Below, piece after piece: positions 15,032 to 39,975 of a DNA stretch of 64,000 nucleotides. The translations under genes were made by a program, and so were the position numbers. The notes under the pieces are model-generated. The model was not told the origin of the DNA. It was given only the letters and a program-made list of their open reading frames with translations, and made no database searches. How positions within the stretch are numbered: the first letter of the stretch is position 1; the number at the start of each line of letters is the position of its first letter. Origin of the DNA: Escherichia phage vB_EcoM_ASO2A; the sequence record MZ726793.1; one strand, written 5' to 3'.

Positions 15032-15059
15032 AGTATAGTTATCTTATACTAACTTTCAA
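15032..15059 (-). promoter_or_regulatory. sigma70-like promoter (minus strand)
   Basis: Minus strand reads TTGAAA-N16-TATACT upstream of the HAD phosphatase gene. Confidence 0.45.
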
Positions 15060-15624
15060 TTTCCTGCAATAGGATTTTGACTATTTGTTTGCGGCGTTTC
15101 GCTACTGTGCTTTCAGGTTCTATTTTACGCTTCTTCAACCAAGCTTTATCTTTCTTAGCTCTACACAAAGCTATTGCTTCTTTTTCAGCTTTCGCTTCTT
15201 CAAAAGATATACCTTGTTTATCTGCATAAGCAAGAATAGAGTTGCACAATTTACAAACCATTCGCAAATCTTCTTCTTTCACATAGATCAAACGGAAAAC
15301 AAAAAGGGGAATATCCTCAAAACATTGAAGTTGTTTTGCTGCGTGAATATGATCCACTTGGAAGTCTTTCATTCCTCCTCTGTGTCCACATATTTCGCAC
15401 TCACAATTCCAAACTTGTTTTGGTTTTCCAGTTTTCTTGTCTATCATCACATTGCCGTCTTTATCTACACGATCAACTTTAAAACGCCTTGCATTGATAA
15501 CCTTAATTTTATTAGGGTGTCTCATCCATGCTTTTCTAAAACATCCCCTAAGATAAGTATAAAATTCAGCTTGTGTTTTCCAGGGTGTTCCTTCACCCCA
15601 CATTATTTTTGGTTCACCTGCCAA
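15049..15624 (-). CDS. HNH endonuclease (free-standing, homing-type)
   Basis: CECEICGH ... QVDHIHAA and C-terminal CKLC Zn-binding arrangement. Confidence 0.55.
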   Translation of the reverse strand: MAGEPKIMWGEGTPWKTQAEFYTYLRGCFRKAWMRHPNKIKVINARRFKVDRVDKDGNVMIDKKTGKPKQVWNCECEICGHRGGMKDFQVDHIHAAKQLQCFEDIPLFVFRLIYVKEEDLRMVCKLCNSILAYADKQGISFEEAKAEKEAIALCRAKKDKAWLKKRKIEPESTVAKRRKQIVKILLQEIES

Positions 15625-16499: not shown

Positions 16500-17459
16500 T
16501 TAGATTCCAATAATAGTTGCTGCTCGTTTATCCTTGGATCTGGTGTTTGCTCTACTACGTGACAAACCGCCGCAAGATTCACAACGAATGATATCGAAAG
16601 AACTTACCGCAGTGTGGTATTGTTTACCAGTAACAACGTGAACGTGATCACTGCCACAACGAGAACAACGGACCTTCTCATCTGGGTAATAAGCGGATAA
16701 GTTAGGATGCTGTGGAATCCACGGAAGGATTTTCATATACAAATCACGGAGTGAAACAACATCACCATCATTGTAAATCTGCATACGTTCAAAAGCATCA
16801 CGATCACCTTCACAACATGCTTTCCATAAAGGGAATCCCTCGTTATCCAGTTTTTCACTTTCTGTTTCGAAATATGCTCCCATTTCTTTAAGGGAGTTGG
16901 AAGGAAGTGCAAATTGTTTCTTAGCTGCCTTCAATGTATCAACAACTACATAATTAGAAGGAGGAGCCATATCGTGATATGCAAATCGTTGGTTAATGTA
17001 TGCACGGTCAAACTTATACCCGTTGTGTGCCACAACTACATCTGCCTCATTCAGAAGGTTCCAAAGATCTTGGCAAAGCTCCCAATCATCTGTATGATCA
17101 ATATCAAAAAGAGGATAAGAAGACAAGTTCTTACCTTCCACTTCACCAGTATACAGGTCAGCAGAAGAGTAAGATAACAAATAACCCCTACGAATTACTT
17201 GATCTGGAGAAATGAAGGCTTTGAATCGACGGAAAGTATATGCAATCTCTGGTGCAGTTTCAACATCAATAATTTTAATAACGGGTTGTTTCTTTTTAAC
17301 TGGCTCTTGTTTACTTGCTCCAAATCGTGCAAGGAAATCGTTCACTGTGCTTTTTCTTGTTGGACTACCTAAAACAATTGCTGCAATATTACGAGAAGAC
17401 ATACCCTCTGCACTCATACTAAGGATATCTGCTTTCTGCTCTTCTGTTAATCTGCTCAC
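16500..17459 (-). CDS. DEDD-type 3'-5' exonuclease with N-terminal HTH and C-terminal Zn ribbon
   Basis: Exo I IIDVETAP, Exo II VVAHNGYKFD, N-terminal HTH-like segment, C-terminal CSRCGS...CESCGG. Confidence 0.55.
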   Translation of the reverse strand: MSRLTEEQKADILSMSAEGMSSRNIAAIVLGSPTRKSTVNDFLARFGASKQEPVKKKQPVIKIIDVETAPEIAYTFRRFKAFISPDQVIRRGYLLSYSSADLYTGEVEGKNLSSYPLFDIDHTDDWELCQDLWNLLNEADVVVAHNGYKFDRAYINQRFAYHDMAPPSNYVVVDTLKAAKKQFALPSNSLKEMGAYFETESEKLDNEGFPLWKACCEGDRDAFERMQIYNDGDVVSLRDLYMKILPWIPQHPNLSAYYPDEKVRCSRCGSDHVHVVTGKQYHTAVSSFDIIRCESCGGLSRSRANTRSKDKRAATIIGI

Positions 17460-18145
17460 TCTGCCTCCTGTTGTGAGATGTATGACTGAAGCATACTCTC
17501 AAATGTTGTATCGTCATTATCCCAGCGTTTCATGTATACCAACTGGAAAATTGTTTCTATCCATTCATCTGTTGTCATATGGACTTCTTCTCCATCCCAA
17601 GAAGTAAAATTAACACCATCTGGGAACCATGAGTAGTAAGTATCTTTAACTGTTTGGAAAAGTTCTGCTTGAGTTTTACAAGCTGAAAGAAGATTAAAAC
17701 AAGTAATATCTCCGAACTTAATATCAAAATCTTGATAAGGTCGGATACTATCTGTTTTATCTCCCATTAGCATCTGATATGCTAACCAGTAACTGCCCCA
17801 ACCTTTAACTTCTTTCTTTTTACCTTTATCTACGATCCATATATCGCCAATAGACTCGTCAATAAGAATTATATCTGGATTTTTAAATACTCCATCCTCT
17901 TTGTAGAAATTAAAAAGGATACTAGGAGTATGTAAACTATCTTTATCTATAGATACTACGATATAAGAAAATTTACCCGTCCTTTTATAATCTTTATAAC
18001 CTTGGAAACCATACTTCTCTAACTCATCATCAGCTTCTATTACAGTAACAACATCACCATTGTGGAACTCCACAAGATAATCTTTGGTTTCTGAAAGCTG
18101 AAGTGGTTTGATATCTAATCGTTCAGATTTATATTCTACAGGCAT
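17456..18145 (-). CDS. hypothetical protein; reading frame stays open about 147 codons upstream of the ATG
   Basis: ORF from first ATG; upstream in-frame region has no stop and no ATG/GTG/TTG and looks protein-like (see findings). Confidence 0.5.
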   Translation of the reverse strand: MPVEYKSERLDIKPLQLSETKDYLVEFHNGDVVTVIEADDELEKYGFQGYKDYKRTGKFSYIVVSIDKDSLHTPSILFNFYKEDGVFKNPDIILIDESIGDIWIVDKGKKKEVKGWGSYWLAYQMLMGDKTDSIRPYQDFDIKFGDITCFNLLSACKTQAELFQTVKDTYYSWFPDGVNFTSWDGEEVHMTTDEWIETIFQLVYMKRWDNDDTTFESMLQSYISQQEAE

Positions 18146-18586
18146 TTTGAAGGCGTGTCTGAAAGTTTTTCCTACGCCAATAACTCCGCAATATTTTTCT
18201 AAACGTAGATGTTTTAGAATACCTAAGACTTTTGTTTTAGCTGCTTGGAAGGTGTGTCCGATATCTTCTGGCGGGTATTGCTTATCAATGATTTCGAACT
18301 CTTCCTTTGTGAAGGGACGTTTGTTTTTGGAGGATCTTTCTGCATTTGTATCTCCTAGCCAACCTCCAATTTTAGTCTTGCTTTTACCCCAAAACTCTGT
18401 CTTATTTTTAAATTCCTTTTGAGCACCTGAAGGGATGTGCTTCGCAATGATTGTTCTTTTCTCTAATGCAGACGCTGCTTGGAAAGCGATCTGATCATAA
18501 TCAATTGCAGCTATTGTTTCTTCATTGACATATAAATGAAGATCTTCAGGTTTAATTAAAATATAACCGCTAATATTTCCCCCTAG

Positions 18587-18796
18587 TTATTCATCGTCAT
18601 CCTCTGTTGAGAATGTTTTAGTATACGGACATTGACGACTTTTCGGGATTGCTATAACTTCATCTTGGTTAGCGTTAGAATAGTAGCAATATTTTGTATT
18701 GCCATTAACTTCAGAATCAGACAAGATTAAAGTAATTTGACCTGCTGCTACTGTGAAACTAAAAGCTAAAAGAACGACTGTCAGAATCTTTTTCAT
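18587..18796 (-). CDS. small secreted/signal-peptide protein (69 aa)
   Basis: N-terminal hydrophobic signal MKKILTVVLLAFSFTVAAG; same frame as downstream ORF. Confidence 0.4.
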   Translation of the reverse strand: MKKILTVVLLAFSFTVAAGQITLILSDSEVNGNTKYCYYSNANQDEVIAIPKSRQCPYTKTFSTEDDDE

Positions 18797-18868
18797 AACG
18801 CCTCCTAAAAAGCCTACCTCATTAAGTAGGTAGGCATAATATCATAACTAATCCCGCAAGTCAAGAAC

Positions 18869-19747
18869 TTATTTAAGGATTGTTGCTTTGGTTAAATCTT
18901 CCATCAGACCTCGAATCTCATTGAAGCACAGAAGGACTGAAGCTTCAATACTGCCTTCTTCGTCTGCAAAATATTTCGGAAAACGTAGTTTAGAAAGTTT
19001 AAACTCTTTATCCACTACGAAATCTACAACACCGTCATATTCAAGACCGATTGCAACAACATCTTTACCATCTTCTTTTAGTTCGACAGCTTTAGACTCG
19101 TATAGGGATTCTTTACTCCAAACAACAACGCCCTCGCTATCCTCCATTTTGATATAATTTCCGAGAGTAATACGATCTGCTTCGTGATTCTCCAGCAATT
19201 CACCAAAACCTTTTACAATAGCTTCTTCATGCACACTAAAACCTACCGAAGGGAAAGTCCCCAGAACGGAACGGAGGAAAGAAGTAATCTCTTCTGCAAC
19301 CTTTTTACTTCCATTAAGAACATAAAGAAGATTCGTAGTTTTATCCAAGACAACATAGTTAAAGAAATCTTCAGGTTCTGTTTCAGGCAATAGTGCAAAT
19401 TCAATATCTTCCTTCATTGCTTTTACTACTTCTTTATCGACATAAAACTCTTTACCTTCGCTCTCCATGTCCTGACGCATTTCTTCTAGACGTTCATTCA
19501 GAATACGTTTAACTTTCTTTTTATCTACCTTCTTCACAGATTGACCTACATTAAGCAGTTCAAGATCTGAAAACTCTTTTACAAATTTAGAGTCATCTTC
19601 GAAACGAACAAGACCGATAGTGTGTGACTGGGAGCCTTCTGCTGTTACAAATTCCAGAGGAATATCTGTAATGTTGTTAAGGGATGCTACAGAAGCATTG
19701 TCACCAACAACCATAGGCAGAGCGGATTTAAAAGATTTTACAAACAT
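18869..19747 (-). CDS. hypothetical protein (292 aa)
   Basis: ORF; no motif recognised. Confidence 0.45.
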   Translation of the reverse strand: MFVKSFKSALPMVVGDNASVASLNNITDIPLEFVTAEGSQSHTIGLVRFEDDSKFVKEFSDLELLNVGQSVKKVDKKKVKRILNERLEEMRQDMESEGKEFYVDKEVVKAMKEDIEFALLPETEPEDFFNYVVLDKTTNLLYVLNGSKKVAEEITSFLRSVLGTFPSVGFSVHEEAIVKGFGELLENHEADRITLGNYIKMEDSEGVVVWSKESLYESKAVELKEDGKDVVAIGLEYDGVVDFVVDKEFKLSKLRFPKYFADEEGSIEASVLLCFNEIRGLMEDLTKATILK

Positions 19748-29156: not shown

Positions 29157-29231
29157 GGCCCTGTAGCTCAATGGGAGAGCTGTCGGCTCATAACCGATAG
29201 GTAGCTGGATCGAAACCAGCCAGGGCCACCA
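29157..29231 (+). tRNA. tRNA anticodon CAU (Met or Ile2 if lysidine-modified)
   Basis: Manual cloverleaf: acceptor GGCCCTG/CAGGGCC, anticodon loop CTCATAA, T-arm GCTGG-ATCGAAA-CCAGC, encoded CCA. Confidence 0.8.
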
Positions 29232-29233
29232 AC

Positions 29234-29308
29234 GTCTTTATGGTGTAATGGATAGCACAGGAGTCTTCTAAACTCTTAGTCAAGGTTCGATTCCTTGTAA
29301 AGACACCA
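29234..29308 (+). tRNA. tRNA-Arg (UCU)
   Basis: Acceptor GTCTTTA/TAAAGAC, anticodon loop CTTCTAA, T-arm CAAGG-TTCGATT-CCTTG, CCA. Confidence 0.8.
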
Positions 29309-29501
29309 GAACATTTTAACATGAATTAGCTCAAGTGATTTGAACCCACTACTGATCATGGTGGCAGAGAATGAGGCAAGTATGTCAGACATTATAAACA
29401 AAGGCCACGGTTATATTAGAAGACATAAATGCTCGAAGAGCACCGTTCGTGGAGAACGGGGTTGGTGGAGTCACCATTCATGGTAAAATGTTTTAAAAAA
29501 C

Positions 29502-29541
29502 TATTGACAACTAACATTATTTTATGTTAGATTATAAGTAT
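29502..29541 (+). promoter_or_regulatory. sigma70-like promoter, conserved AACTATTGACAA element (copy 2)
   Basis: AACTATTGACAA-N17-TAGATT immediately before tRNA-Ser. Confidence 0.5.
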
Positions 29542-29632
29542 GGAAGGGCAAATCGACGTGGCGACGAAAACGGTCTTGAAAACCGCCGAGCTTGAAAGAG
29601 CCTTGGGAGTTCGACTCTCCCTCCTTCCGCCA
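29542..29632 (+). tRNA. tRNA-Ser (UGA), class II
   Basis: Acceptor GGAAGGG/TCCTTCC, anticodon arm CGGT-CTTGAAA-ACCG, long variable arm, T-arm GGGAG-TTCGACT-CTCCC, G73, CCA. Confidence 0.75.
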
Positions 29633-29637
29633 GATTA

Positions 29638-29723
29638 GGTAGATTGGTGAAATGGTAGCCACGACAGTTTGCTAAACTGTAGTCGGAAACGGCGTGTAGG
29701 TTCGAGTCCTACATCTACCGCCA
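29638..29723 (+). tRNA. tRNA-Ser (GCU), class II
   Basis: Acceptor GGTAGAT/ATCTACC, anticodon arm ACAGT-TTGCTAA-ACTGT, long variable arm, G73, CCA. Confidence 0.8.
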
Positions 29724-29853
29724 AGTTCTTTTTAATATAGCTTACTTTAGCAGAGTAAATCTTCGGCAAGTGGCGGTAACCACTTTACCGATAACTCATA
29801 GTTAGTGGTGTGAACACTGGCTATTTTAAAAAGAATTTAAATATTAGTATTTA

Positions 29854-29941
29854 GGTGAGTTAATTCCGTAGGGGTAGCGGGGCAGACTGTAAATCTGTTA
29901 TCATTGCGATTCGGGTGGTTCGACTCCATCACTCACCACCA
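29854..29941 (+). tRNA. tRNA-Tyr (GUA), class II
   Basis: Acceptor GGTGAGT/ACTCACC, anticodon arm CAGACTGTAAATCTG as in bacterial tRNA-Tyr, long variable arm, A73, CCA. Confidence 0.8.
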
Positions 29942-29946
29942 AATTA

Positions 29947-30032
29947 AGATGAGTTGGCTGAATGGTTTAAGCGGCGGACTGTTAATCCGTGTTCGAAAGA
30001 ACGATATAGGTTCAAATCCTATACTCATCGCC
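29947..30032 (+). tRNA. tRNA-Asn (GUU), atypical with long variable arm
   Basis: Acceptor GATGAGT/ACTCATC, anticodon arm GCGGA-CTGTTAA-TCCGT, extra hairpin GTTC-GAAA-GAAC in variable region, G73, CCA. Confidence 0.6.
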
Positions 30033-30039
30033 AGAATTA

Positions 30040-30116
30040 TGGACTTGTAGAGTTAAGGTAAACCCCCAGTCGCCAAGAGGCTTCTGGAATTGCAGGTATC
30101 GAATCCTGCCGAGTCC
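30040..30116 (+). ncRNA. tRNA-like element without canonical anticodon arm
   Basis: Acceptor GGACTTG/CGAGTCC and T-arm GCAGG-TATCGAAT-CCTGC (8-nt loop); central region folds as a CCAG...CTGG hairpin. Confidence 0.35.
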
Positions 30117-30123
30117 CAGCTTT

Positions 30124-30198
30124 GCTCCTATAGTATAATGGCTATTACAACGGTTTTGTAATCCGTGGATCTCTGTTCGATTCAGAGTGGGAGCACCA
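30124..30198 (+). tRNA. tRNA-Thr (UGU)
   Basis: Acceptor GCTCCTA/TGGGAGC, anticodon loop TTTGTAA, T-arm CTCTG-TTCGATT-CAGAG, CCA. Confidence 0.7.
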
Positions 30199-30471
30199 AC
30201 ACAACATTAAGGGCACTGTGATTGATCGTCGTATCCTGTGCACAAGGTCTGTTCGAAAGACAGTGTTCTTAGTATTGTGTTGATCACACAAAAAGAGTTA
30301 CCTGAAACTTGACCGGAGTAGGGTTGGATGGGGCAAAAGAAGAAGCGGCTCTCCCATCGACAGCAACGAAGAATAATATTTGACTTTGGTTTTGTATTAT
30401 TTTAAGTTAGCTTACCGAACGTAGGGCTAGTCACCCAACGGGATACTCGTCACTGTCCCACTCAATAAAAC

Positions 30472-30512
30472 TATTGACAACCAATAGTAAAATGTAGTAT
30501 AGTAAAGATGTA
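30472..30512 (+). promoter_or_regulatory. sigma70-like promoter, conserved AACTATTGACAA element (copy 3)
   Basis: AACTATTGACAA-N15-17-TAGTAT/TATAGT immediately before tRNA-Gly. Confidence 0.5.
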
Positions 30513-30514
30513 GG

Positions 30515-30588
30515 GCGTTCTTGGTGTAGCGGTAGCATTCCGTCCTTCCAAGTCGGCGGCACGAGTTCGATCCTCGTAGAACGCTCCA
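30515..30588 (+). tRNA. tRNA-Gly (UCC)
   Basis: Acceptor GCGTTCT/AGAACGC, anticodon loop CTTCCAA, T-arm ACGAG-TTCGATC-CTCGT, CCA. Confidence 0.75.
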
Positions 30589-30686
30589 AATTATTTAATA
30601 AAGGGTTGCCAGAAAACTTTCTCTTTTACTCATGGTTTTCTCCTTCTCTCACACCTCTTCTGGTTGCCCTTCATTAAATGATTTAT

Positions 30687-30762
30687 TGGTTTGTAGTGTA
30701 GTCCGGTAGCACACGACACTTTGACTGTCGTAGGTTTGGTTCAAATCCAGACAGACCAGCCA
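30687..30762 (+). tRNA. tRNA-Gln (UUG)
   Basis: Acceptor TGGTTTG/CAGACCA, anticodon arm CGACA-CTTTGAC-TGTCG, T-arm TTTGG-TTCAAAT-CCAGA, CCA. Confidence 0.75.
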
Positions 30763-30855
30763 TATAACAAAGGTGAGTCACTACCTCAAGTGTGAAGTTA
30801 AAAACGAGGAGCCGCCGAACACTTTCTTTTGCGGTGTACCTTTAGAATGTTATGA

Positions 30856-30932
30856 CGGAATTTAGCTCAGTTTGGTAGAGTGTACGCTTTGGGAGCGTAT
30901 TGTCGCAGGTTCGAATCCTGCAATTCCGACCA
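30856..30932 (+). tRNA. tRNA-Pro (UGG)
   Basis: Acceptor CGGAATT/AATTCCG (C1-G72), anticodon arm TACGC-TTTGGGA-GCGTA, T-arm GCAGG-TTCGAAT-CCTGC, CCA. Confidence 0.85.
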
Positions 30933-30938
30933 ATTAAA

Positions 30939-31012
30939 TGTTTCGTAGTTCAATGGTAGAACCCACGACTGATAATCGTGAGATACAAGTTCGATTCTTG
31001 TCGAAACAACCA
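30939..31012 (+). tRNA. tRNA-Ile (GAU)
   Basis: Acceptor TGTTTCG/CGAAACA, anticodon arm CACGA-CTGATAA-TCGTG, T-arm ACAAG-TTCGATT-CTTGT, CCA. Confidence 0.8.
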
Positions 31013-31014
31013 GT

Positions 31015-31084
31015 TTCCCGTTAGACTTACAGGATAAGAGTTCCACAATTTATTGTGACGCTGGTTCGAATCCAGCACGGGATA
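31015..31084 (+). ncRNA. atypical tRNA-like element with shortened anticodon arm
   Basis: Acceptor TTCCCGT/ACGGGAT (1:72 mismatch), D-arm, T-arm GCTGG-TTCGAAT-CCAGC; anticodon region CACAA-TTTA-TTGTG has a 4-6 nt loop; no encoded CCA. Confidence 0.35.
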
Positions 31085-31090
31085 CATAAT

Positions 31091-31169
31091 AGCGGGATAG
31101 AGGAGTCTGGTCGTCCTCGCCAGTTTCATATGCTGGAGATCATTGGTTCAAATCCAATTCCCGCCTCCA
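31091..31169 (+). tRNA. tRNA anticodon CAU (Met), 1:72 unpaired
   Basis: Acceptor AGCGGGA/TCCCGCC with A1xC72 mismatch, D-stem GAGG/CCTC, anticodon loop TTCATAT, T-arm ATTGG-TTCAAAT-CCAAT, CCA. Confidence 0.7.
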
Positions 31170-38544: not shown

Positions 38545-39546
38545 ATGCCAGCAGTAATTTTAGATCAGGTTGTAGATTTCAGCCCTATGATCGAACTTCA
38601 GGATTCCCCTGATACACTGATTGCCAGCCTGAATCTGTTCAGTGTTGACTATCATTCAACTACCGCTATTGAAATCGGTAAAGAAAAAGCTGAAGATGCT
38701 CTGATCTCCGCTCGTGAGCGTGGTGGTGAGCGTAACTTCCTGACCATGAAAAATCCAGAACTGAAAGCGTTCCGCATTCCGTTCTTCCCTCTGGATAAAA
38801 ACATCAAAGCTCAAGATATTCAATCTTTCCGTAGCTTTGCAATGGCAGGAATCAATGACTCTCTGCGCACAGACGCTGAAGTTGTTAACCGCTATATGTC
38901 CCAGATTCTGCGTGACGTAGCAAAAACCAAAGAGAAAATCTTTGCAGAAGCAGTTATGGGTCGTGCCTATAACGGTGTAGGCGGTGCAGCTAACTCTGCA
39001 TACAACTGGTATACCGAATGGGGTGCTACCCAGAAATCTGTTGCTGTAGACTTTGCTTCTACCACTGTTTCTCCAGCAGCCACTATCGAACAAGAAGCTC
39101 GTGCTTACATCATCGATACTAAACAAGATGGCTCTACCGCTACCCGTATCGTAGCTCTGTGTTCTCGTGAGTTTTTCGCATCTCTGGTTAACTCTCCATT
39201 TGTTCGCCAGGCATATCAGTATTTCCAGGGAACTCCTAACCTTCTGCGTGACCGCCTTAGCGGTAACATGGATGTTCAGGTGTTCGAATGGAACGGTGTA
39301 ACTTACATTGAAGATATCCACGGTAACATCCCTGCTGGTGAAGCATATGTTCTGCCTATGGGTATCGAAGGTATGTTCCAGGCGCACTACGCTCCTGCGG
39401 ATACCCCAGAACTGGCTAACACCCAGGCTCGTGAACTGTATACCTTCATGATCAGCCAGCACCGCACTATTCAGCTTCAGTCTGAATTCTCGCTGCTCGC
39501 AGTTAACACCCGTCCAGAACTGGTAGTTAAACTGACTACGGCTTAA
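38545..39546 (+). CDS. major capsid protein
   Basis: 333 aa, strongly host-adapted codon usage, terminator directly downstream; assignment by position. Confidence 0.65.
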   Translation: MPAVILDQVVDFSPMIELQDSPDTLIASLNLFSVDYHSTTAIEIGKEKAEDALISARERGGERNFLTMKNPELKAFRIPFFPLDKNIKAQDIQSFRSFAMAGINDSLRTDAEVVNRYMSQILRDVAKTKEKIFAEAVMGRAYNGVGGAANSAYNWYTEWGATQKSVAVDFASTTVSPAATIEQEARAYIIDTKQDGSTATRIVALCSREFFASLVNSPFVRQAYQYFQGTPNLLRDRLSGNMDVQVFEWNGVTYIEDIHGNIPAGEAYVLPMGIEGMFQAHYAPADTPELANTQARELYTFMISQHRTIQLQSEFSLLAVNTRPELVVKLTTA

Positions 39547-39566
39547 TAGAACTCTGTTAAGATTAG

Positions 39567-39598
39567 AGGCTCGTCCGTGATGGGCGAGCCTTTTCTGT
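39567..39598 (+). terminator. intrinsic terminator after capsid gene
   Basis: GGCTCGTCC-GTGAT-GGGCGAGCC stem followed by TTTTCTGTTT. Confidence 0.65.
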
Positions 39599-39630
39599 TT
39601 ACAATAAGAGTTTACAACGAGGAGATTGAT

Positions 39631-39975
39631 ATGTCAAACCCAGAATTGAAACGTTACTTTAGTTATCACGAAATGATTCGTGATTTCGAATCGCTTTCAC
39701 CACTGATCGATGCTGATAAAACATTAGTATCTGCGCCACCAATGTCTTTCTATCTGAAAGATGGTCGTATTGCATTAGGTGGAAACTTCATTCACTTCCT
39801 CACGCGTTTGAGAGAAGAAACAGGTATTCTTGTGCATCCTTTTGCAAGTGAAGAACATATGGGTTACTATCTTGTAAGTTACGAAGACTATGCACCTGTA
39901 AAAATCAAAGAAGAAGTTTTAAAAGTAGAAGCGGTAGACACTCCAGCTAAAAAACGTTCCCTTCGTAAAAAATAA
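39631..39975 (+). CDS. hypothetical head/neck protein
   Basis: Start trimmed to Met19 of the listed ORF, preceded by GAGGAG; upstream part overlaps the terminator. Confidence 0.4.
   Translation: MSNPELKRYFSYHEMIRDFESLSPLIDADKTLVSAPPMSFYLKDGRIALGGNFIHFLTRLREETGILVHPFASEEHMGYYLVSYEDYAPVKIKEEVLKVEAVDTPAKKRSLRKK

Follow-up and report, generated by a model that had tools for sequence, protein, structure and literature searches.

Evidence for an AUU start codon in the gene for a flap-endonuclease-fold exonuclease of a phAPEC8-like Escherichia phage

The window analysed here is a stretch of 64,000 nucleotides from Escherichia phage vB_EcoM_ASO2A (sequence record MZ726793.1). Its sequence is that of a phAPEC8-like Phapecoctavirus, and the segment under study, which belongs to the replication–recombination module of this phage, is 99.9–100% identical to phAPEC8 and MRostami-2023b. 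We consider it very probable (about 0.88) that nucleotides 17456–18574 of the minus strand form a single gene, encoding a 372-residue 5'–3' exonuclease of the flap-endonuclease fold, and that its translation starts at an AUU codon behind a strong Shine–Dalgarno (SD) sequence. The same DNA is annotated in most public records as a shorter gene that begins at an internal ATG.

A preliminary description of this DNA, made from its letters without database searches, had pointed to two open reading frames (ORFs), 18587–18796 and 17456–18145, in the same minus-strand frame and separated by a single TAA. Six-frame recomputation reproduces this arrangement. The frame passes from an ORF of 69 residues through the TAA (18587–18589) into 376 open codons that end at TGA 17456–17458, and these are its only two stops between 17456 and 18796. 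A codon-by-codon scan from 18586 to 18146 likewise agrees with the description in finding no stop and no ATG, GTG or TTG. On the minus strand the junction reads taa CTA GGG GGA AAT ATT AGC GGT TAT, with GGGGGA (18583–18578) located three nucleotides upstream of the first of the three in-frame ATT codons of the leader (18574, 18562 and 18556). The window has 53 open frames that reach 150 codons or more; the start-less leader, with 147 codons, is the longest in this set, the runner-up having 57 and the median being four codons. In the long ORFs of the window, 4.7% of the in-frame codons are ATG, GTG or TTG, which puts the probability of 147 codons without any of them at ∼8e-4. All 64 Phapecoctavirus records with a match of at least 95% identity to the segment show the leader arrangement. 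Agreement among these 64 independent genomes rules out an error in the sequencing of the window, which had been one of the explanations put forward. The runner-up among the start-less frames (38656–39633, minus strand, with 57 codons before the first ATG, GTG or TTG) is probably no gene, as its upstream part looks like plus-strand sequence read antisense, with a gene start and a terminator.

The translated leader had been described as looking like ordinary protein, and comparison with other phages supports that impression. The profile phrog_107 (`exonuclease') matches the whole extended ORF with an E value of 8e-56 and the upstream 147 residues alone with an E value of 5e-7, at profile positions that are contiguous with the downstream match, and tblastn covers at least 80% of the extended ORF in 900 of 1207 phage records. 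When the N-terminal 142 codons are compared with 13 relatives (50–83% identity), the proportion of synonymous differences (pS) is 0.65–0.88, which is saturated, and that of nonsynonymous differences (pN) is 0.16–0.36, corresponding to pN/pS ratios of about 0.2–0.45. The leader shows no frame disruption in the relatives examined and is open in 16 of 16 related lineages. Owing to this purifying selection and the intact frame in relatives, recent pseudogenization, a further explanation in the preliminary description, is rejected. In an alignment of 45 sequences, three residues upstream of Met144 are invariant: D25 (18502–18500), F55 and R139 (18160–18158). Judged by its conservation, the upstream stretch is coding and supplies the N-terminal third of the exonuclease.

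The model of the full-length protein generated by AlphaFold2 from the 45-sequence alignment has a predicted local distance difference test score (pLDDT) of 95.9 and a predicted template-modelling score of 0.89. Residues 11–140 have pLDDT values of 91–98, and the part that lacks annotation includes two long strands (residues 16–25 and 127–137). A Foldseek search of the PDB returned T5 D15 flap endonuclease (FEN) or E. coli ExoIX as all of the 12 best matches (E values of 4e-5 to 9e-4, probabilities of 0.99–1.0), followed by Pol1 of M. smegmatis, with no other fold at a significant E value. The invariant set in the alignment comprises D25, R139, Y148, K149, E180, D182, D183, D210, K211, D212, D272 and D275. 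A profile search (Taq residues 39–207; E value of 0.067, which is weak) aligns the segment TFRHAFK-M-PVEYKSER with FRHEAYGGYKAGR in the 5' nuclease of Taq polymerase and also brings the motifs EADD, DKD and GDxxDN into register with Taq. From its place at the end of strand 16–25, rather than from a residue-level superposition, D25 is likely to be the first catalytic aspartate. On its own, the protein had no match among PDB sequences in phmmer; profile and fold searches alone succeeded.

The protein thus resembles the T5 D15/ExoIX/Pol I 5' nucleases (PF02739/PF01367 superfamily) in its predicted fold (Foldseek probability of 1.0, E values of 4e-5 to 1e-3), in the FRH...YK..R, E-A-D-D, D-K-D and G-D-x-x-D-N motifs that align to Taq and in the invariance of its carboxylates. 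It differs from them in being ∼100 residues longer, with insertions; TM-scores against these enzymes are only 0.3–0.6, and the equivalent of Taq Asp67 is a glycine in most members. We conclude that it is a divergent 5'–3' exonuclease of the flap-endonuclease type, assigned at the level of the predicted fold, with nuclease activity as a prediction.

For 16 related lineages, with identities down to 50%, the N-terminal DNA was read from entries in GenBank and IMG/VR and from metagenome assemblies (L numbers denote the loci). The codon aligned to 18574–18572 is ATT in L004/L012/L013/L031, L017, L019, L020, L021/L026, L022 and L024, as well as in the near-identical L010 and ESCO13 (L032). It is ATC in L011/L025, L014, L015 and L016, ATA in L018, L033 and L034, and CTG in L023, and because of this CTG the site is not merely a conserved isoleucine codon. 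An SD core (GGAGG or GGGGG; GGAGA in L034) begins nine or ten nucleotides before the aligned codon in all 16 of these near-cognate lineages; in the window, the SD AGGGGG ends four nucleotides before the ATT. An in-frame stop lies 0–19 codons upstream of the aligned codon in the 16 lineages, at a distance of four codons in the window, and in L015 the stop is the codon directly preceding the start. The G-run of the SD (18579–18583) has five, six or seven G in Phapecoctavirus genomes that are 98–100% identical (including L035, L036 and L037); this polymorphism may be real homopolymer variation that tunes the strength or spacing of the SD, or it may be homopolymer sequencing error. Since the length of the run varies from five to seven within the genus, the sequence 5' of it is outside the reading frame, and ATT 18574 is the first initiation-competent codon on its 3' side. 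For L022, L033 and L034, gene callers picked an ATG ten codons downstream of the aligned codon; this ATG is not preceded by an SD, and the nine codons before it show synonymous differences and conservation at the protein level.

In the Vequintavirinae CR3, ABPH49/Kashira, SSE121, pEa_SNUABM_55, Ro1 and the rV5-like A6-1, ATG, GTG or TTG occupies the aligned position, and Pseudomonas phage RP7 likewise has one of these canonical codons there. The exonucleases of the Vequintavirinae (rV5, CR3, SSE121 and Ro1) and of PAK_P-like Pseudomonas phages are orthologues from the same genomic module (25–47% identity), with the N-terminus at the same position and an SD at a similar distance, but they start at ATG, GTG or TTG, whereas the clade of the window uses near-cognate codons only. 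The N-terminus is M-G-Y-P in most of the Vequintavirinae read and (M)-S-G-Y or (M)-G-Y in the window's clade. In a neighbour-joining tree, the near-cognate lineages form one clade and the canonical Vequintavirinae are its sister. Of the 84 protein clusters, 36 have at least 50% identity, and not one of these starts at the aligned position, from which it follows that no canonical codon is present at the site in these clusters; among those below 50% identity, P0037–P0070 begin there, with the exception of the truncated P0043 and the longer P0045. Alignment to homologues, which the preliminary description had proposed as a check, therefore places the start of the sister-clade proteins at the equivalent of 18574, with the region upstream of the annotated ATG conserved. 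Translation most likely starts at ATT 18574–18572. The RNA structure around the start is not more stable than that of shuffled sequences (z = −0.06) and an Rfam scan of 17000–19500 gave no match at E values of up to 1, so neither an RNA element in the leader nor a structure that stimulates readthrough is indicated.

The type phage phAPEC8 (in both GenBank and RefSeq) and phAPEC8_ev052 are annotated with a 229-residue `putative exonuclease' from ATG 18145, and the remaining 441 nucleotides are left blank or hold a 40-residue ORF in another frame. The latter, a hypothetical protein of phAPEC8 (gp266/AFU62842.1; 18223–18345, minus strand), lies wholly inside the exonuclease coding sequence and is almost certainly spurious. 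In a tblastn search with the 143 upstream residues, no annotation is found under the match in the Phapecoctavirus records listed, and in those Justusliebigvirus records that were examined the gene is annotated from an arbitrary internal TTG or GTG. The ATG at 18145 is located within the FRH...YK..R motif and lacks a preceding SD (cacgccttcaaaATG); the 229-residue product is an artefact of gene callers that are limited to ATG, GTG and TTG. The ESCO13 entry (KX552041.2) independently gives this gene, as the coding sequence ESCO13_00118 (AQM50955.1), the ATT start at the equivalent of 18574, a ribosome-binding-site feature and a product of 372 residues (MSGYILIK...) that differs from that of the window at one residue, and the UniRef100 cluster of this product has 12 Phapecoctavirus members. 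This is an annotation only, which is not followed in the other Phapecoctavirus records examined; the ESCO13 genome announcement does not mention the ATT start (PMC5374246), and no paper on the ATT start of this exonuclease was found in the literature searched. AUU starts as such are a known type of feature, and through ESCO13 the present case is already partly known from databases. The use of four near-cognate codons throughout a clade, against three canonical codons in its sister, and the extent of the mis-annotation appear to be unreported in the sources searched.

The co-framed ORFs with a single stop between them could also be expressed by readthrough or suppression of TAA 18587–18589, which would yield a fusion of the 69-residue ORF and the exonuclease, and a public catalogue contains a 444-residue `fusion' protein (P0005). 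We regard such a fusion as very improbable. L004, L011, L012, L013, L018 and L019 have the upstream ORF in a frame other than that of the exonuclease gene, L015 has two in-frame stops, indels in the G-run alter the frame relation within the genus and a signal peptide on a replication nuclease would be functionally senseless. The co-framing is incidental. P0005 itself (L016, 1201–2535) was rejected as a fusion: the contig DNA has a TAG that was read as Gln, the product does not translate to the query and the entry is a gene-caller artefact; the 379-residue P0092 appears to be another artefact of reading TAG as Gln. We regard as equally improbable the reading that is annotated in most public records, in which the gene proper is the 229-residue ORF beginning at ATG 18145 and the leader is what is left of a truncated or recently pseudogenized N-terminus. 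Selection on the N-terminal codons is purifying in relatives as distant as 50% identity, the ATG lacks an SD and interrupts a catalytic motif, and such a product would lose the invariant D25 and R139 together with strands 16–25 and 127–137. Thus, of the four explanations in the preliminary description, initiation at the ATT that follows GGGGGA has strong support from sequence comparison, structure and annotation, while readthrough, sequencing error and pseudogenization did not survive.

An AUU start at 18574 can itself be set against neighbouring codons and alternative routes of initiation. ATT 18562, ATT 18556 and ATA 18514 are also in frame, and the codon aligned to Ile11 is an isoleucine codon in the other near-cognate lineages read there. 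These codons are 15, 21 and 63 nucleotides beyond the SD, however, and an SD centre more than 15 nucleotides before the start is rare in E. coli genes (PMC3592434); moreover, L021 has AAA and L023 has CAA opposite 18562, and the N-termini of the sister clade align to 18574, which makes a start at any of the three very unlikely. A variant of the preferred reading is that AUU 18574 is used mainly by ribosomes arriving directly from termination at the end of the upstream ORF, i.e. by translational coupling or re-initiation. In every near-cognate lineage with upstream sequence, an upstream ORF ends 1–21 nucleotides before the start, even though the identity of this ORF varies: besides the small secreted protein, it can be a methyltransferase (L022), an HNH gene (L023) or an additional 34-residue ORF (L024). 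E. coli infC, the classic AUU gene, which encodes initiation factor 3 (IF3), is laid out in the same way downstream of thrS (UAA GGU AUU), and re-initiation and de novo initiation are each credited with about half of its translation starts (PMC3592434). However, tight gene packing is usual in phages, so that proximity is weak evidence, and a strong SD at a fixed distance argues that de novo binding of 30S subunits contributes as well. Overexpression of IF3 lowers re-initiation (PMC2268962), and coupling would therefore offer no escape from discrimination by IF3. Coupling as the main route is possible, although we lean away from it.

Several observations count against an AUU-started flap endonuclease, or against the reasons proposed for its weak start. 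Pfam gives no significant match for the extended ORF or for its upstream or downstream piece, and distant homologues reach PF02739 only below its gathering score (23.7–28.3 bits compared with a cut-off of 34.3); because this score is not reached, membership among the 5' nucleases holds at the superfamily or fold level only. The N-terminus at the ATT, although strongly supported, rests on evidence of a comparative, structural and annotation nature. The start codon has changed ∼5–6 times, and never to ATG, when counted on the neighbour-joining tree; we estimate the neutral probability of this outcome at roughly 0.2, such that the absence of ATG is suggestive but short of significance. Finally, the rationale for a weak start in terms of dosage or IF3 is conjectural.

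In the proposed mechanism, 30S subunits would initiate at AUU 18574–18572, four nucleotides after AGGGGG and 12 nucleotides after the upstream stop. A weak start of the AUU class would keep the nuclease at a low or IF3-sensitive dose, and the near-perfect SD, possibly together with ribosomes that finish 1–21 nucleotides upstream, would prevent initiation from being negligible. In E. coli reporters, AUA, AUC, AUU and CUG give ∼1–2% of the initiation at AUG (Hecht et al. preprint, 10.1101/063800), and the start codons of the window's clade are exactly this near-cognate set. In another reporter system, AUU and UUG were 6–8-fold below AUG and GUG (Osterman). Non-canonical starts are barred by IF3 (PMC9723500), and the only confirmed chromosomal E. 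coli genes with an AUU start are infC and pcnB, which encodes poly(A) polymerase I (10.1101/063800).

The phage gene shares with infC and pcnB an AUU start with an SD before it and, with infC, the stop of the upstream gene a few nucleotides before the AUU; in the two bacterial genes, the weak start limits or regulates expression and such codons are discriminated by IF3 (10.1101/063800; PMC3592434; PMC9723500). It differs in that the product is a phage replication nuclease and not an initiation factor, with no obvious autoregulatory loop, and in that the codon drifts among AUU, AUC, AUA and CUG in the phage clade; dependence on IF3 would be a prediction for the phage gene. The window also carries ten tRNA genes (29157–31169, plus strand): two Met(CAT), Arg, Ser, Asn, Thr, Gly, Gln, Pro and Ile(GAT). 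A phage initiator tRNA that reads AUU was considered and rejected, as neither tRNA-Met(CAT) has, by eye, the three consecutive anticodon-stem G-C pairs of bacterial initiators, and the CUG in L023 speaks against an AUU-specific phage tRNA. One of the two tRNA-Met(CAT) may be of the tRNA-Ile2 type.

Table 1. Features of the exonuclease locus (positions in the window)
Feature	Position	Strand	Basis and remarks
Proposed full-length coding sequence of the exonuclease, flap-endonuclease type	17456..18574	-	372 codons + TGA, start ATT; phrog_107, tblastn, AlphaFold2/Foldseek, ESCO13 AQM50955.1
Proposed initiation codon ATT (AUU, decoded as fMet)	18572..18574	-	First near-cognate codon after the in-frame stop and G-run; aligned codons; ESCO13 coding-sequence start
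Shine–Dalgarno sequence AGGGGGA	18578..18584	-	Core 9 or 10 nucleotides before the start across near-cognate lineages; ESCO13 ribosome_binding_site feature
N-terminal 142 codons, without annotation in sampled Phapecoctavirus records	18146..18571	-	pN/pS, invariant residues, pLDDT
ATG of internal Met144, used as start in phAPEC8 and most records	18143..18145	-	Inside conserved motif, no SD
69-residue ORF, separate gene with signal-peptide-like N-terminus	18587..18796	-	phrog_4641, E 7e-27; annotated in all examined records
Promoter-like site, hairpin and T-run	18812..18864	-	Pattern scan
3'–5' exonuclease gene downstream	16500..17459	-	GTG start overlaps flap-endonuclease TGA (GTGA)

The features of the locus are collected in Table 1. 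The TAA of the 69-residue ORF ends 12 nucleotides upstream of the ATT. This ORF encodes a phrog_4641 protein (function unknown) with conserved cysteines and an N-terminus, MKKILTVVLLAFSFTVAAG, that resembles a signal peptide; across the clade, a small secreted protein is kept in the middle of a replication/recombination module. The promoter-like site upstream of it is a consensus match only, of the sigma-70 type (TTGACT, 17 nucleotides, TATTAT, with TG before the −10 element; 10 of 12 positions match). It is followed directly, just upstream of the 69-residue ORF, by an 8 bp hairpin (GCCTACCT...AGGTAGGC) and a T-run. From this pattern, the region is probably where transcription of the 69-residue ORF and the exonuclease gene starts, and the hairpin would be either the 5' end of that transcript or the terminator of the upstream rdgC transcript. 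The related locus L016 has TTGACT and a segment capable of pairing at the equivalent place. On the other side of the exonuclease gene, the counterparts of the downstream gene in related loci carry PF13482 (RNase_H_2).

The neighbourhood varies among relatives. An additional hydrophobic ORF of 34 residues, MFTDKPLTITLFLILLVLVGLIIKEAVYQHRHKD, separates the gene for the small secreted protein from that for the exonuclease in L024 (997–1101), with a GTG that overlaps the upstream stop. HNH endonuclease genes lie directly upstream of the exonuclease gene in L023 (600–1133), L027, L028, L030 and L005, and the window has one near the locus (15049–15624), which suggests that the module is a hotspot for the insertion of homing endonucleases.

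The annotated 229-residue product lacks the first 143 residues, including the invariant D25 and core strands, and an enzyme cloned or modelled from the present entries would be predicted to be a dead fragment. The locus shows systematic errors both from callers restricted to three start codons and from callers that try TAG = Gln recoding. It provides a well-supported natural case of AUU-class initiation in an E. coli phage, and the comparative series of AUU, AUC, AUA and CUG starts, set beside the AUG, GUG and UUG starts of the sister clade, can be used to address whether weak starts are under selection because they limit a potentially toxic nuclease. We tentatively raise the possibility, without favouring it, that the exclusive use of AUU, AUC, AUA and CUG throughout the clade is a selected translational control on the flap endonuclease. 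If so, it could act as an IF3-sensing or coupling-dependent throttle on the dose or timing of the nuclease during infection, a viral counterpart of the logic of infC and pcnB.

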